Shown here piece after piece: positions 13,512 to 32,757 of a stretch of DNA of 54,197 nucleotides. This stretch comes from Candidatus Aadella gelida (GTDB taxonomy: Bacteria > Omnitrophota > Gorgyraeia > Tantalellales > Tantalellaceae), in NCBI GenBank assembly GCA_030765205.1, contig JAVCDB010000008.1:1-54197 (forward strand), written 5' to 3'. Each line of letters begins with the position of its first letter. Position 1 is the first letter of the stretch. The notes beneath the pieces were generated by a model, which ran no database searches, was not told the DNA's origin, and worked only from the letters and a program-made list of their open reading frames with translations. The position numbers were made by a program, and so were the translations under genes.

Positions 13512-13874
13512 TTAATTGTCCCTGCTATTAATGTATTTTATCAAACGATCTCTTTCTCTTGGGAGAAGTGTGTTAAAAAATATTGCGACATCATAATGCA
13601 AGATCTTGTTCCCTTTTTTAACAGGATGTTCTCTGACAACCACCCCGTCAAGATTCATGGAAACAGGAGCAGAGCCTTTCTTGATGCCCGGAAGAGAAAG
13701 TACTAACTGTACCTGTGTCATAAGGGGTATTCTTTTAGCTACTTTGCAGTAAAGACCTGACGCACTTACGTCGAGACTCTGAGTTATCGTATCACAACCG
13801 TCGGCCGATAATTTGATAGCTATTCTATCATCTTTTATTCTTGGATATCTTCTTCTTTCGGCGCCTTTTTTCAT
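13512..13874 (-). CDS. PilZ domain protein
   Basis: ERRRYPR (RxxxR) and DVSASG (DxSxxG); ATG 13874 with GGAG SD preferred. Confidence 0.85.
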   Translation of the reverse strand: MKKGAERRRYPRIKDDRIAIKLSADGCDTITQSLDVSASGLYCKVAKRIPLMTQVQLVLSLPGIKKGSAPVSMNLDGVVVREHPVKKGNKILHYDVAIFFNTLLPRERDRLIKYINSRDN

Positions 13875-13923
13875 AAGTTCTCCAATCTTTTTCTTTCTTA
13901 AATGTGTCGCTTCTCTGCAGCAT

Positions 13924-14271
13924 TTATCCGGGAGGCCATGTAAAACTTCTCCCCCCCATAAGATGCGCATGCATATGAAATACTTCCTGACCAGCGTTCT
14001 TATTACAATTTACAACTAAACGGTATCCTTCCTTATCGATCTTCTCTTTTTTAGCTATATCCCTAGCTACGGAAAACAATTTACCCGCAATAGCTTCGTT
14101 CTTCTCGCTAAGATCGTTGACCGTAGGTATATGTTCCTTCGGGATAATAAGAACATGTACCGGGGCTTGTGGATCAAGATCTCTGAACGCTAATATCTCG
14201 TCGTCCTCGTACACAACCGATGCCGCAATATCTTTACTTGCTATCTTACAGAAAATACAGTTCTCTTTCAT
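13924..14271 (-). CDS. hinT: Histidine triad nucleotide-binding protein
   Basis: CIFCKI, PQAPVHVLIIPK, GQEVFHMHAH, WPPG C-terminus. Confidence 0.95.
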   Translation of the reverse strand: MKENCIFCKIASKDIAASVVYEDDEILAFRDLDPQAPVHVLIIPKEHIPTVNDLSEKNEAIAGKLFSVARDIAKKEKIDKEGYRLVVNCNKNAGQEVFHMHAHLMGGRSFTWPPG

Positions 14272-14318: not shown

Positions 14319-14756
14319 CTACCAATACATTTTCTCAAACCGTTCAGAATATCTCTTTATCCATTCTTGAGAAGCTTCTTTTAAGGATACATCCTTTCCA
14401 TCCTGGAGAGAACGCAGCACACGATATTCCTCTATGAGATAGATCTGCTCTATTAATTTGACCTTGAACGCATCAGCATAAGTCTCGAAAGAAACTCCAA
14501 TCTTGTATAACCCCGCAGACTCGTCTTTCGCAGAGTGGACAACCTTGGCTTTAATGTTGAAGACTTTGTCATATACGGGCATTTTTATAAGTATGAGGGT
14601 TTCGGCAGCAACATCCGTTTTGGACATAAACATCAACCCGCCTTCACTCACATCGACAGTTTCACTTTTCTCAAAATCTTCTTTCTCAGTTATCTGGAAC
14701 TCCAAAGGATTTACAAGAAGATGCCTAATGAACCGTCTTTTTTCGTGATGAGACAT
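14319..14756 (-). CDS. PilZ domain protein with helical C-terminal extension
   Basis: EKRRFIRH and DVSEGG; ATG 14756 with GGAGG SD preferred. Confidence 0.85.
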   Translation of the reverse strand: MSHHEKRRFIRHLLVNPLEFQITEKEDFEKSETVDVSEGGLMFMSKTDVAAETLILIKMPVYDKVFNIKAKVVHSAKDESAGLYKIGVSFETYADAFKVKLIEQIYLIEEYRVLRSLQDGKDVSLKEASQEWIKRYSERFEKMYW

Positions 14757-14845
14757 ATATCCCTCCGTAGGATTTAGTATATCATACAATACCCGAACAT
14801 AAGATCGGGAAAATCTTATTCGTCATGCTGCATATCGCCCGTCAA

Positions 14846-17320: not shown

Positions 17321-18268
17321 TTACCTATTATAACAAGCATCGATAAGATCTTCTAAACGTGCTGTAGCAAGACATTGAACCGTATCGGCTCCACCATAAT
17401 ATATTTTCACTTCATTATTCGGCTCTAGAACTGCTCCGCAAGTAAAAACAACGGCATAAGTCAACCCGGTAAGTTCATAATCCATAACCGGTGAAAGTAT
17501 CGGAGCCTTGGCACGCGCGATTATCTTTGAAGGATCGTCCTTATCCAGCATCATCACGCCTAAATGATAAACATATTGAGCCGCACACTGTACATTAACG
17601 GCATGATATATTACCAACCAACCTTTATCTGTTTTAATCGGCACCGCTCCGGGACCATTTTTCTTCCATCCCCATTCGTCTTGCGTCTGCGCAACTGCTC
17701 TTGAGCCTCCCCAATGTATAAGATCCGGAGAATATGAAACCCACATGTATCCATGTCCGTCACCGGTGTTGGGCCTGTCAAGTCGGCAATACATACCATT
17801 AATCTTTTCAGGGAACAGCAGCCCGTTCCTGTTATCCGTCTCCGAGATAAATCCTTTCCACTTAAACTCTTTCATGTCGGGCGATTCCAAAAGACCTAAT
17901 CTGCAGGAATGACCGCTGTGACAAGCAAAAACAACATAATATGTGTCGCCTATAAGGGTAACTCGTGGGTCATAATACATCCCGGCGGTATATTCTTTAA
18001 ACTCTTCTGTATCCGGCATTTTGATGGGTTCCGGTCGAAGTGTAAAATTTATACCATCGTTGGAATCAGCCGGCCACATAAGCTGTTTCATTGAAGGTGT
18101 CTCCACCCTGCATAACATTACATACTTTCCGTCCAGAGTTTTTATGCACCCTGAATTATAAACCCCTTTAGCAGCTCCAGGTATATCTTCCTTTATCAAT
18201 ATTGGGTTTTTTGCGTACCGTACAACTATATTTTCTTTTTCCTTGGAATAAACTATTGGTTGTGACAT
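17321..18268 (-). CDS. Glycoside hydrolase family 130 (beta-mannoside phosphorylase-like)
   Basis: NPIL, YNSG, YDPRV, NRNGLLFPEKING, LDRP, IYHAV, VVFTCG, YYGGAD. Confidence 0.9.
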   Translation of the reverse strand: MSQPIVYSKEKENIVVRYAKNPILIKEDIPGAAKGVYNSGCIKTLDGKYVMLCRVETPSMKQLMWPADSNDGINFTLRPEPIKMPDTEEFKEYTAGMYYDPRVTLIGDTYYVVFACHSGHSCRLGLLESPDMKEFKWKGFISETDNRNGLLFPEKINGMYCRLDRPNTGDGHGYMWVSYSPDLIHWGGSRAVAQTQDEWGWKKNGPGAVPIKTDKGWLVIYHAVNVQCAAQYVYHLGVMMLDKDDPSKIIARAKAPILSPVMDYELTGLTYAVVFTCGAVLEPNNEVKIYYGGADTVQCLATARLEDLIDACYNR

Positions 18269-18386: not shown

Positions 18387-19430
18387 TTACACTTCGAGAA
18401 CAGAATCGGCGGTACCGAAAACATTATGCTCGGAATTGACGTTATTTGGGTCGCTTATCCATTCGTTATCCACCAAAAATTTATAGCGGTACCTGCCCCT
18501 ATCCAAAGTAAAATGAGCCGCCCAGTCACCGCTTTCAAGTTTGGTCAACCGTGTCGCTTCTGATTTCTTCCATCCGTTAAAATCTCCCAGAACGTATACG
18601 GACCCGGCTTTGGGAGCATGGAGGGAAAATTCTTTTAGAGCCACCTTTATATCTTTATCTTTAGATTTTAAGAGTTCGCCTGTCAGGTTATAAAAATCTG
18701 AAGATGCGGAACTCTTAATATCATGTTCGAATATGGTCTTTCCTAGGCTAGCAGCTTCTCTTAATCTTACGCTTGCTCTTATTTTGGATGTTAGCAAATA
18801 TGGTCCCAGCCTTTTTTTTGCCTCTTCTTCCAGTTTTCTGGCAAATTTAGACCTCTTGTCAAAAATGTTCAGAACAAAAAATATCGAGGGATCCCTTCCA
18901 GTTTCATTTTTCAGAAGACTAGATACCCTGTATACACTATTTATACCGTTGAAGGAGAAATAACTAAGATCTATGGGAACCAGCATCATATCCGCCGCGT
19001 ACATTGAATTAAGGGTAAGAAATCCAAAACTTGGAGGCGAGTCTACCACAACATATTCGTATTTATTGAAATAAGGATCCGATAACGTCCGGTATAATAT
19101 GGCCGCTGCGCCGTTAACTCCGCCCAAATTTATTTCCGCGGCGCTAAGCATCATATTGGCAGGAATAAATGAAAGATGGTCCCTGTCGTTTATTACTATG
19201 TCTTCAAAGGACACTTCTGTTTTATCGAAACTAGCCCTAAAAATGTCGTATGAAGTCTTTCTTCCGGACGCTTTCTCGTTATATCCCAAAGCAAACGTCG
19301 CATGAGCCTGAGGATCAAGATCTATGAGAAGCGTTTGTTTCCCCATGTTCGCCAAAGTAGCCGCAACATTTACAGCTAAAGTAGTCTTACCGCAACCGCC
19401 TTTTTGATTAGCTATGGAAATTATCTTCAT
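18387..19430 (-). CDS. ParA/Soj family ATPase fused to C-terminal CBM48/AMPK-beta-like glycogen-binding domain
   Basis: NQKGGCGKTT deviant Walker A, DLDPQ, VVDSPP; C-terminal SVYVLGDFNGW...GRYRYKFLVDNEWISDPNN. Confidence 0.9.
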   Translation of the reverse strand: MKIISIANQKGGCGKTTLAVNVAATLANMGKQTLLIDLDPQAHATFALGYNEKASGRKTSYDIFRASFDKTEVSFEDIVINDRDHLSFIPANMMLSAAEINLGGVNGAAAILYRTLSDPYFNKYEYVVVDSPPSFGFLTLNSMYAADMMLVPIDLSYFSFNGINSVYRVSSLLKNETGRDPSIFFVLNIFDKRSKFARKLEEEAKKRLGPYLLTSKIRASVRLREAASLGKTIFEHDIKSSASSDFYNLTGELLKSKDKDIKVALKEFSLHAPKAGSVYVLGDFNGWKKSEATRLTKLESGDWAAHFTLDRGRYRYKFLVDNEWISDPNNVNSEHNVFGTADSVLEV

Positions 19431-19450
19431 ATACCCCCTCTTTTTTCTAG

Positions 19451-19479
19451 ATTATAGCATATAACTATTTTGACGTAAA
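19451..19479 (-). promoter_or_regulatory. sigma70-type promoter of the ParA-CBM48 gene
   Basis: TTTACG-N17-TATAAT with extended -10 TG; GAGGGGG SD follows. Confidence 0.55.
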
Positions 19480-19638
19480 TATAAATATCTACATATTTAA
19501 CATAGAATGTGCTCTTTTTGCCGGACTAAAATCGCGTATTTCCAGGTCAATTCTCTCCTCTTTTTGAAAGTTTTTTAGCCAAATTGACATTTCCACATTT
19601 TAGTTCTATTACGGTCCCTCTTATGATAAAATAACCTT

Positions 19639-20604
19639 ATGAATAAGCACCGAACCAAAGACAAAATTGACGCCGAACTTTCAAAAACGTATTTCGGCAA
19701 TGCCTTAAGGACTATAGACCTTGATAGCGATTCTTTAAGCGTAAGGAAAAACACCTCCTCCGTGGAGAAAAACACTATAAAGGAGAAAAACACTATAAAA
19801 AATGACAAACCCTCTCCCGGGAAAAGGCGGTCACTGCTAATAGGCGCACTCCTTTTGACGGGTAAATTGCGTCCCTTTTTTATATCCATCATTCTTCTGG
19901 CAACATTGTCCCTTGCTATTATACTTTTCATATCGCACAATCGCATGATATTCGATTTCAATATAAACGTTAAACCTGTGAACAAGGAGCTTTTAACTGC
20001 CCCATCTTCTCCGGTCGAGGGATCAAACATACAAATTACTGCACCTGGTAGCACCGTTATCTCATATGCAAAAGAGCCTCTAGTTACCGAAAAAACACTT
20101 TATGATTTTGAGAATGGAGAAGATGGTTGGGAAATACCTTTTTGGGCGACCGAAAAGCCTGATCACGTGGCCTTATCCATAGCATCTATCAACAATATAT
20201 CTTCGAATGGTGAAAGCAGTATTGGTATCTATGCCGAATTTTTACCTGGCCGGTGGTCTGCCGCATTAATAGAAACCCAGCATTATCTTGATCTGAGTGA
20301 CTATAATTCAATATCGGCAATGGTATACCTTCCTCCCGACGCGATTGACCGGTTAAGTTGTGAGCTCATATTTACTGTCGGTGACGATTGGCGGTTTGTT
20401 GAAATGGCTCGCAAAGTGAAATTAGTACCCGGGAAATGGACGATCGTAGAAGCGGACATCTCTGAAGGAAGCATAGACTGGAAACGAACCTTAATCGATA
20501 ATGATTTCAAAAAAGATATACGCAAGATCTCGTTAAGAGTAACATCCGACGGAAAACCCCATTCAGGACTTATCTATGTAGACGAGATCAAGGTCTCTCC
20601 CTAA
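19639..20604 (+). CDS. Membrane-anchored carbohydrate-binding module protein (mannanase-associated CBM-like jelly roll)
   Basis: Basic N-terminus, one TM, then TLYDFENG..GW, DLSDYNSI, PGKWTIV, IYVDEIKV beta-sandwich pattern; no catalytic domain. Confidence 0.65.
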   Translation: MNKHRTKDKIDAELSKTYFGNALRTIDLDSDSLSVRKNTSSVEKNTIKEKNTIKNDKPSPGKRRSLLIGALLLTGKLRPFFISIILLATLSLAIILFISHNRMIFDFNINVKPVNKELLTAPSSPVEGSNIQITAPGSTVISYAKEPLVTEKTLYDFENGEDGWEIPFWATEKPDHVALSIASINNISSNGESSIGIYAEFLPGRWSAALIETQHYLDLSDYNSISAMVYLPPDAIDRLSCELIFTVGDDWRFVEMARKVKLVPGKWTIVEADISEGSIDWKRTLIDNDFKKDIRKISLRVTSDGKPHSGLIYVDEIKVSP

Positions 20605-31665: not shown

Positions 31666-32757
31666 ATGACTTTTACCATAAGACATAATACTACTAGAAT
31701 ACTGCGTTCCCTCATAATCACTATATTCCTTTTCAATTTTATTCTTACGCCCTCTTTCGTTTATCCGGAGGTAGCCTTTATTGCTCCGCAAAAAGGAATG
31801 TGCTATATAACCTGGGATCGGAACAGGTTCGCTTCGCAGTACTCCGATGAATCTTTAAAAAAACTTTCTACAATGGGAGTGGAATACATTTCAATCTGCC
31901 TCACCCATTATCAGGAAAAACATAATTCCACCAAGATAAAGTCTACCAGCAGAACTCCAAGCAGAAAAAGCCTTAAGCATGTCATAAAGAAAACGCATGA
32001 CCTTGGCATGAGCACGATGCTAAAGCCTCATATTGACCTCATAAGTAAAGGTGAGGGCACCTATTGGAGAGCCGATATTGGTTTTGCGTCCGAGCGAGAC
32101 TGGCAGAAATGGTTCGCAGAATACGAAAAATTTATCATTTCTTACGCGCGTATAGCTGAGAAAATGGATGTCGAGATATTTTGCATCGGAACCGAACTTT
32201 CTTTTGCTTCTCAAAGAACGTCAGATTGGAAAAACATCATTTCAGAGATAAGAAAAGTGTATTCAGGGAAGCTGGTATATGCAGCTAACTGGGACAACTT
32301 TAAGAATATAGAATTTTGGGACGAACTCGATTATGTCGGAATAGACGCTTATTTCCCTCTGACCTATACTACTAGACCTACTCTTGAAGACCTAAAGGGC
32401 GGCTGGACAAAGTGGAAGAACGAGATAGAAGCGTGGCACTCAAAAATAAACATACCTGTACTCTTTACAGAGATCGGATATGCCAGCACTGCAGGTGCTC
32501 CTTATTCTCCCTGGAAAGGAGGCTCTTTCGGAAACGCGGACATAAGCATCCAGGCATTATGTTACAAAGCATTTTTTGATACAATATGGAATGAACCATG
32601 GTTTGCCGGTGTCTACTGGTGGAAGTGGGATACAAACGTCCGCGCAGGCGGAGTTTACAATCGTCAGTTCACCCCTCAAAATAAACCCGCACAGAAAATA
32701 ATCGAAGCTAATTATAAAGGACTAACAGGAAACAGAGTTTATGCAATGGCTAAATAA
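31666..32757 (+). CDS. Glycoside hydrolase family 113-like protein (beta-mannanase-like), exported
   Basis: Signal/TM segment, MLKPHI, CIGTEL (acid/base), YAANWD, GIDAYFPL, FTEIGY (nucleophile), GVYWWKW. Confidence 0.85.
   Translation: MTFTIRHNTTRILRSLIITIFLFNFILTPSFVYPEVAFIAPQKGMCYITWDRNRFASQYSDESLKKLSTMGVEYISICLTHYQEKHNSTKIKSTSRTPSRKSLKHVIKKTHDLGMSTMLKPHIDLISKGEGTYWRADIGFASERDWQKWFAEYEKFIISYARIAEKMDVEIFCIGTELSFASQRTSDWKNIISEIRKVYSGKLVYAANWDNFKNIEFWDELDYVGIDAYFPLTYTTRPTLEDLKGGWTKWKNEIEAWHSKINIPVLFTEIGYASTAGAPYSPWKGGSFGNADISIQALCYKAFFDTIWNEPWFAGVYWWKWDTNVRAGGVYNRQFTPQNKPAQKIIEANYKGLTGNRVYAMAK

Follow-up and report, generated by a model that had tools for sequence, protein, structure and literature searches.

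The window analysed here, a stretch of 54,197 nucleotides from Candidatus Aadella gelida (phylum Omnitrophota; assembly GCA_030765205.1, contig JAVCDB010000008.1, positions 1 to 54,197 of the forward strand), encodes on its minus strand a 347-residue protein in which a Soj/ParA-like ATPase domain is followed by a carbohydrate-binding module (CBM) of the type found in AMPK β subunits. Divergent to this gene, ParA-CBM48, lies a gene for a protein with a single predicted membrane helix, referred to as the partner in the following. ParA/MinD ATPases place chromosomes, plasmids, carboxysomes and chemoreceptor arrays, and in orphan cargo systems such as McdA-McdB, the ATPase works through a dedicated partner. 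Our computations show the domain make-up of the fusion protein, how far its catalytic and sugar-contacting residues are conserved, that it is an orphan, that a partner with a conserved peptide and a predicted topology is linked to it, and how prevalent it is in the phylum; the binding of glycogen, DNA and peptide, as well as the outcome in the cell, is what we infer from these. The locus comprises the following features:

18387..19430 (-): ParA-CBM48 gene, 347 residues, ATG start, stop codon at 18387-18389; Pfam matches AAA_31, CbiA, AMPK1_CBM and CBM_48; AlphaFold2 (AF2) model
18657..19430 (-): Soj/ParA-like ATPase domain, residues 1-258 (solved relatives, Foldseek, kept catalytic residues)
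19380..19403 (-): deviant Walker A motif, residues 10-17, with the signature lysine K10 (sequence; invariant in the family alignment save for the single exceptions given below)
18621..18656 (-): linker, residues 259-270, of variable length among relatives, with insertions of up to about 50 residues in the alignment
18390..18620 (-): CBM48 domain of the AMPK β glycogen-binding type, residues 271-347 (Pfam, AMPK β1 alignment, conservation)
19431..19638 (no strand): intergenic region between the divergent genes, with a site resembling a promoter at 19451-19479 (-), taken as no more than a lead
19639..20604 (+): partner gene, 321 residues, with an N-terminal peptide, one membrane helix and a CBM-like domain predicted to face outward (homologues, alignment, AF2, synteny)
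19660..19695 (+): conserved partner peptide, residues 8-19, core ELSKTYF (alignment; AF2 helix 9-23)
19870..19935 (+): predicted partner membrane helix, about residues 78-99 (AF2; positive-inside count)
20086..20601 (+): C-terminal β-sandwich of the partner, residues 150-321, CBM27/CBM11-like, predicted periplasmic (AF2, Foldseek)

An orphan ParA-type ATPase with an AMPK β-type CBM

A single intact open reading frame (ORF) on the minus strand coincides exactly with 18387..19430. In Pfam, its product is matched by AAA_31 (151.5 bits against a cut-off of 27, residues 1-176), CbiA (67.8 bits), AMPK1_CBM (44.6 bits against 26.8, residues 276-346) and CBM_48 (28.6 bits against 22.4), all far above chance expectation. 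An initial annotation, made from the DNA letters and their reading frames, had already described a Soj/ParA ATPase fused to a CBM48 domain, and all the motifs quoted there are present, namely the Walker A motif (residues 10-17), DLDPQ (37-41), DSPP (130-133), GDFNGW (282-287) and YRYKF...W..DP (314-328). The AF2 model has a predicted local distance difference test score (pLDDT) of 88.2 and a predicted template-modelling score (pTM) of 0.81. Its C-terminus is the last β-strand of the CBM, in agreement with the annotated absence of a MinD-type tail; MinD-like membrane binding by the fusion, which is without a C-terminal amphipathic helix, was rejected.

The closest solved relatives of the ATPase domain are the chromosomal proteins Myxococcus xanthus ParA (8ray, 1.2e-36), Helicobacter pylori Soj (6iub) and Thermus thermophilus Soj (1wcv). 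Structure searches with Foldseek led to the same group (8ray, 9a6n, 6iub and 1wcv; E 1e-21 to 1e-23, template-modelling scores of 0.86-0.93 normalised to the target); they were run on the full fusion model, the matches listed being to ATPases only. The catalytic residues are kept in almost all relatives (K10 79/80, K15 79/80, D37 80/80, D39 79/80, D130 80/80). With its KGGxGK[ST] Walker A motif, its DxDPQ and D-SPP motifs and its Soj-like fold, the domain is a deviant Walker A ATPase of the ParA/Soj type. Because the NCBIfam equivalog of partition ParA proteins, NF041546 (ParA_partition), scores only 109.1 bits, below its cut-off of 180, we regard the fusion as a ParA-family ATPase, but not as a standard partition ParA. 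It shares the fold and the nucleotide-binding motifs with the chromosomal Soj/ParA proteins of ParABS systems (8ray, 6iub, 8jmj, 1wcv, 2bek; about 30-35% identity over 255-267 columns), but differs from them in its additional CBM48, in the lack of a ParB or parS partner and in its partial set of DNA-binding lysines.

The source genome (1.59 Mb, 113 contigs, 92% complete) encodes its own canonical parA-parB pair on contig C84, where the two genes overlap and the ParB opens with an LGKGLEAL motif; the fusion is therefore an orphan ParA, as had been suggested. A profile of the fusion family likewise separates the two ATPases, with 590 bits over residues 1-347 for the gene in the window and 217 bits over residues 1-259 for the genome's own Soj. 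A search of the genome for ParB_N gave three matches, located on contigs C84, C35 and C86, whereas contig C61, which holds the window, has none, so that the window is free of parB, as originally noted; in Pfam, no ParB or helix-turn-helix (HTH) domain was found in the partner protein. The two ParB_N matches outside parAB (C35:15888-16145 and C86:2953-3219, with 63.7 and 29.5 bits) adjoin no reported ParA match.

The C-terminal 82 residues are most similar to CBM structures of AMPK β1 and β2 (1z0m, 1z0n and 4yef; about 2e-7, residues 277-346), and the assignment of this region to CBM48 rests on such sequence matches. By alignment, in a chain numbering that fits PMC6274970, W287, K317, W324 and G339 of the fusion correspond to W100, K126, W133 and G147 of AMPK β1, and position 342 aligns with N150. 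According to the same source, AMPK β1 loses its glycogen binding through the substitutions W100G and K126Q and binds more weakly with W133L and G147R (PMC6274970). We followed these positions in an alignment of 80 sequences (79 loci and the window, one truncated locus having been dropped): W287 is present in 80/80, W324 in 79/80 and G339 in 77/80 sequences, position 317 is K or R in 73/80 and Q in 7/80, and position 342 is N or D in 78/80. Averaged over all 3160 pairs, the CBM sequences are 42.1% identical and those of the ATPase domain 45.1%. With a Pfam match above the cut-off and the residues needed for glycogen binding kept nearly invariant, the domain is a genuine AMPK β-type CBM, which upholds its annotation as a glycogen-type CBM48, and the fusion would thus be expected to bind α-glucans such as glycogen. 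It differs from its best solved relatives in being bacterial and cytoplasmic, and in being borne by a P-loop ATPase rather than a kinase scaffold.

A membrane-anchored partner with a conserved N-terminal peptide

The partner has no Pfam match above cut-off, the nearest being a weak one to Mann_GBD_bact (18.4 bits, below the cut-off of that family). The gene had gone unmentioned in the initial annotation. We found 27 homologues, all of them from Omnitrophota where named, and several lie on contigs equal in length to contigs that bear the fusion. At the N-terminus, a short peptide is strongly conserved: four residues do not vary in 22 sequences (D8, I10, L14, F19), and four more reach at least 90% (D11, E13, T17, Y18). 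Between this peptide and the C-terminal domain, which is well conserved and about 170 residues long, lie a basic linker, a hydrophobic helix and another linker, in this order, both linkers being unconserved. In the AF2 model, these parts appear as a helix (residues 9-23), a membrane region (65-99, with helices 65-76 and 78-99) and a β-sandwich (150-321, pLDDT >90), for which Foldseek retrieved the CBM of a mannanase (1wky, 1.2e-8), CBM27 (1pmh/1of3), CBM11 (1v0a) and CBM28. Lysine and arginine residues are more frequent before the membrane helix than after it (mean 5.3 versus 2.3), and of 60 partners, 52 have the richer side N-terminal to the helix and two C-terminal to it; the peptide is therefore predicted to lie in the cytoplasm and the CBM-like domain outside.

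Loci L017-L019 share the window's neighbour genes at 59-84% identity. The fusion is 65-74% identical in these loci and the partner about 40-55%, and the outer domain of the partner shows about 40% identity among close loci where the ATPase has 72-74%.

The window further encodes a GH130 protein (beta-mannoside phosphorylase family; 17321-18268, minus strand) and a GH113 protein (beta-mannanase family; 31666-32757, plus strand). Together with the likeness of the partner domain to mannan-binding CBM27, these hint at the use of β-mannans.

Partner pairing across the family

We clustered the neighbours of 80 loci and found three arrangements, which differ in the position and type of the partner:

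Arrangement a (window and L017-L019): partner divergent and membrane-anchored; peptide core ELSKTYF
Arrangement b (32 plus 7 loci): partner upstream on the same strand, with peptide, lysine-rich stretch, membrane helix and β-rich domain; peptide core HLAKIYL or LADIYF
Arrangement c (about 21-23 loci, mostly outside Omnitrophota): partner downstream on the same strand, soluble; peptide LGRGLEDISHLFLS and variants

The peptide cores align across the arrangements as [D/E/H]-[I/L/V]-[S/A]-x-x-[F/Y]-[L/F]. Profiles built from the window-type partner reached only the three closest loci, the distant partners being found through the clustering of neighbours. A strict motif combined with a membrane-helix pattern matched 38/81 loci; it undercounts, and was replaced by a looser motif with a background control. 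This loose pattern, sought in the first 75 residues of each ORF, occurs in an adjacent ORF in 62/81 loci, as compared with 13/876 among the ORFs of these loci at distances above 1.5 kb. Among the 62 peptide-bearing neighbours, 36 lie upstream on the same strand, 23 downstream and three divergently; thus, the side varies by subfamily, and the adjacency is kept. In the 19 loci without a match, several near-variants were seen by eye. The initial annotation had assumed that the built-in CBM takes the place of a separate adaptor, which is contradicted by the dedicated peptide-bearing gene next to the fusion in most loci.

In arrangement c, the peptide begins with an LGRGL motif, which resembles that of ParB proteins acting with chromosomal Soj/ParA. 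For the H. pylori ParB peptide MAKNKVLGRG, the conserved Leu7 and Arg9 are described to contact ParA near its dimer interface (PMC11229316). By analogy, the partner peptides may contact the ATPase of the fusion. A predicted complex of two fusion copies, two ATP and partner residues 1-45 reached a score of 0.10 against a mark of 0.32, and counts neither way. The loop at about residues 49-60 of the fusion is the equivalent of the ParB-peptide clamp in H. pylori ParA. Its length tracks the type of partner peptide, with the window type having the longest loop and the HLAKIYL type the shortest, a trend that is confounded by relatedness and thus a lead only.

As a ParA apart from the chromosomal parAB, with an adjacent peptide-bearing partner, the fusion corresponds to McdAB-like orphan systems. 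It resembles McdA-McdB in combining an orphan ParA-type ATPase with a small dedicated adjacent partner, and the McdA structures 6non and 6nop are among its matches (Foldseek 4e-17, sequence 8e-15). The differences are that the presumed cargo-binding module resides on the ATPase and that the partner is membrane-anchored.

CbiA weakly matches two of eight arrangement c partners tested (about 31 bits), as it would a degenerate ParA. Such a degenerate ParA is followed, in the non-Omnitrophota locus type, by a nuclease-like protein (cluster 6, with L044:8079-8741 and 11 loci like it), which PADLOC matches weakly to the candidate defence families PDC-S11 and PDC-S18 (27 bits).

The fusion is widespread in Omnitrophota

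A protein search returned at least 120 clusters, in which nearly all full-length members carry both domain families; more than 100 clusters share the architecture. Identities are 57-80% in those named Candidatus Omnitrophota or Omnitrophica, and about 40% in a second group. A scan of one genome per species yielded 592 relatives, and the best 80 loci, nearly all of which cover query residues 1-347, are labelled as Omnitrophota, Krumholzibacteriota, Margulisiibacteriota, Gemmatimonadales, Desulfobacterales/delta-proteobacteria, Planctomycetota/Phycisphaerae and Acidobacteriota, these being the depositors' labels for metagenome bins. Since the fusion recurs across protein clusters, genomes and phyla, it is not an assembly chimera, a possibility that the initial annotation had tied to its absence from related genomes.

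To estimate prevalence, the fusion-family profile was run against 301 evenly drawn Omnitrophota genomes, the resulting table being counted by hand. The best E-values per genome form two peaks. About 224/301 genomes lie at E 1e-75 or better and were counted as carriers of the fusion, given that the Soj of the window's own genome reaches only 1.7e-64; a further 66 have Soj-class matches only, and 11 have no match. Among the 150 matches listed, the whole profile is spanned in all but one, which is cut by a contig end. The fusion is present or missing by whole families, numbered f1, f2 and so on in our tally: it was found in 15/16 genomes of f1, 15/15 of f2, about 35/41 of f12, 5/5 of f13 and 3/3 of f15, and in 0/5 of f5, 0/7 of f6, 0/5 of f7, 0/5 of f10 and 0/3 of f17.

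AMPK1_CBM alone matches 260/301 genomes, an excess that stems in part from separate CBM-only proteins of about 95-130 residues. Such small CBM-only ORFs (e.g. G256:C63:20973-21221 and G053:C5:70118-70336) are frequent in Omnitrophota and often score 60-70 bits, above the CBM of the fusion; the AMPK1_CBM search found none in the window's own genome.

Relation to α-glucan metabolism

In 22/80 loci, all of arrangement b, the gene immediately 5' of the partner, in the same orientation, is a GH57 gene (PF03065, 231 bits). In a distant Omnitrophota subfamily, represented by L036:1980-7507 and some 20-30 others, the locus looks operon-like, with a porin of the Alginate_exp type, GH57, the partner, ParA-CBM48, a small DUF4870-like membrane protein (19 loci) and a small basic barrel protein resembling EF-Tu domain 2 (29 loci) in this order.

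Among the proteins encoded in the genome of the window are a glycogen/maltodextrin phosphorylase (1102 bits), a 677-residue GH57 amylase/4-α-glucanotransferase and GT5/GT4-type synthase candidates. For GlgC, the genome yielded below-cut-off matches only, and for canonical GlgB, the sole CBM_48 match is ParA-CBM48 itself. With phosphorylase, GH57 and synthase candidates, this carrier does have α-glucan enzymes; a lack of glycogen metabolism in carriers would, according to the initial annotation, have refuted its reading. More broadly, the phosphorylase family PF00343 (E 1e-20 or better) occurs in 204/301 Omnitrophota genomes. We compared fusion and phosphorylase by family, with 30 families tallied: about 14 have both, and about eight have neither (e.g. 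f5, f6 and f17). The association is positive but imperfect, with mismatches in both directions, and related genomes do not count as independent samples.

A proposed role in glycogen handling and its alternatives

The architecture itself has already been described. A recent preprint (bioRxiv 10.64898/2026.10.19.760177, 22 Oct 2026) introduces, on computational grounds, a ‘ParA-CBM’ family on ConB5, a ParA branch tied to immunity. Its first variant consists of a ParA with a C-terminal AMPK1_CBM and a single-pass membrane protein with an outward CBM, and its second variant adds another, inactive ParA and a nuclease-like protein. In the preprint, the distribution of the family is called sporadic and its CBM is said to diverge rapidly, with carbohydrate sensing at the time of infection as the proposed role; the words ‘Omnitrophota’, ‘N-terminal peptide’ and ‘ParB-like’ are absent from its main text. 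We recover the same architecture and both variants, but the partner gene in the window is divergent rather than co-directional, the fusion occurs in about three quarters of the Omnitrophota genomes sampled, and its sugar-binding residues are nearly invariant. Two of the grounds given for immunity, rapid CBM divergence and sporadic distribution, are not borne out by the present counts, considering the similar identities of CBM and ATPase domain (42.1% and 45.1%) and the carriage by about 224/301 Omnitrophota genomes. Our literature searches found no published link between ParA/MinD ATPases and glycogen, apart from the preprint, which reads the family as immune. The statement that no characterised example exists therefore still holds for the function, which remains a proposal, but no longer for the architecture.

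We consider it possible, at a rough probability of 40%, that the fusion and its partner constitute a two-gene ParA-type module that tethers or distributes cytoplasmic glycogen between nucleoid and envelope. As a Soj-like P-loop protein, ParA-CBM48 would most likely form an ATP-sandwich dimer and probably retain some non-specific DNA binding. Because each subunit carries a CBM48, the dimer would have two sugar-binding sites, by which it could grip glycogen particles. The partner would be a single-pass inner-membrane protein, with its peptide directed toward the cytoplasm and its CBM27/CBM11-like domain toward the periplasm, and the peptide may set the ATPase cycle, as peptides of ParB, McdB and MinE do. 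The most likely outcome would be that glycogen is tethered and spread between nucleoid and envelope and shared at division, instead of diffusing freely. Somewhat more speculatively, this could be the first dedicated system for placing or tethering a storage polysaccharide in bacteria: the ParA would hold glycogen by its own CBM48 and be switched by the ParB-like peptide of a membrane partner, the outer domain of which would bind external glycan, so that granule handling would be tied to the envelope and perhaps to feeding; such a system would then count among the core traits of the nanosized, uncultured Omnitrophota, and several other phyla would have variants of it.

Several observations weigh against this proposal. 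The preprint places the fusion on a ParA branch tied to immunity. Among close pairs, the CBM diverges faster than the ATPase (62% versus 76% identity). Families f13 and f15 have the fusion throughout (5/5 and 3/3) but lack PF00343 (0/5 and 0/3), and f4, f7, f8 and f25 possess a phosphorylase-like gene without the fusion (f7: 5/5 versus 0/5). The conserved outward domain of the membrane partner is unlike a simple granule adaptor. GH130 was rejected as a part of the system, because it adjoins the fusion in only one of three close loci.

The DNA-binding surface is likewise only partly kept. In H. pylori ParA, DNA is bound by K199, K227, K230 and K247 (PMC11229316), which we placed on the fusion by manual mapping through the sequence alignment. 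The position of K199 corresponds to K192/R193, with R193 kept in 79/80 sequences, and that of K230 to R222, which is K or R in 65/80; position 224 is K or R in 74/80. By contrast, the K227 position is A219 and not basic, with the neighbouring R218 being R in 25/80, and the K247 position, K239, is basic in only 17/80. The claim of basic residues where Soj binds DNA thus stands for R193 and R222, but fails for the K227 equivalent and for most K247 equivalents. As no more than two of these four positions are kept basic, non-specific DNA binding by the fusion is plausible, but not secure.

The same basic positions (R193, 222 and 224) and the proximity of the ATPase domain to chromosomal Soj/ParA would also suit an ordinary second DNA-partition ParA, with a β-sandwich that no longer binds sugar and serves for protein contacts or dimerisation only. 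We regard this as very improbable: the genes next to the fusion encode neither a ParB domain nor an HTH or any other DNA-binding partner, the ParA_partition score (109 bits) falls below its cut-off of 180, and the retention of the AMPK β glycogen-binding residues in nearly all 80 relatives is hard to explain without a sugar ligand. A closer competitor, though still an unlikely one, is a transmembrane switch for carbohydrate status, in which the periplasmic CBM of the partner would report a mannan-like glycan outside and the CBM48 the stored glycogen, with the ParA coupling foraging to storage and the granules not being moved. The predicted location of sugar-binding-type modules on opposite sides of the membrane speaks for such a switch, as do the GH130 gene next door, the GH113 gene at 31666-32757, and the fact that a domain of the same kind serves AMPK β as a glycogen sensor (PMC6274970, PMC2642990); yet Pfam detects no output domain (DNA-binding, kinase or cyclase) in either protein, arrangement c has no membrane partner, and the adjacency of GH130 is not conserved.

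An immune function, as favoured by the preprint, would make the fusion an anti-phage or anti-plasmid sensor: the CBM would detect a carbohydrate made or depleted during infection, whereupon the ParA would multimerise and block the invader. This is consistent with the assignment to the conflict branch ConB5 together with the description of both locus types (10.64898/2026.10.19.760177), with the fast evolution of the partner's outer domain (about 40% identity where the ATPase has 72-74%), and with the company of arrangement c, i.e. the degenerate ParA (CbiA, about 31 bits) and the nuclease-like protein (PDC-S11 and PDC-S18, 27 bits). It is at odds, however, with the commonness of the fusion in Omnitrophota (about 224/301) and its occurrence by whole families (f1 15/16 and f2 15/15, f5 0/5 and f6 0/7), with its position among conserved housekeeping genes, which it equals in conservation, with its nearly invariant sugar contacts and a CBM that, taken over its full length, shows no marked excess of divergence over the ATPase, and with the GH57 genes linked to it in 22 loci. 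Moreover, no effector domain was detected, PADLOC returning for fusion and partner only an 18.7-bit P-loop match. We therefore consider an immune sensor improbable, and a conserved cellular role in glycogen handling to be the better fit to the data.

If the fusion does handle glycogen, it leads on to how the main carbon reserve of bacteria is arranged in the cell and passed to the daughters, and would represent a defining cell-biological trait of the uncultured phylum Omnitrophota; if it is immune in nature, it would be an unusually widespread and vertically kept defence gene. Under either reading, the gene pair is small (347 and 321 residues) and suited to a laboratory host.

Other observations in the window

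A σ70-type promoter had been annotated directly before ParA-CBM48. A promoter-like site does lie 21 nucleotides 5' of the ATG (19479-19451, minus strand; TTTACG, 17 nucleotides, TG-TATAAT; 10/12 matches), but such sites are no commoner in the region than expected from shuffled sequences (four found versus a mean of 4.0), and we treat it as a possible lead only.

The genes around the fusion are ordinary ones; in Pfam, they include GH130, an ArfB-like RF-1 domain, an SNF transporter, two PilZ proteins, an HD/OB nuclease, a UvrD/PD-(D/E)XK helicase-nuclease and MetW. The two PilZ-domain genes (13512-13970 and 14319-14789, both on the minus strand) flank a HIT-family gene (13924-14271), the ORF of which overlaps the first PilZ ORF by 47 nucleotides.

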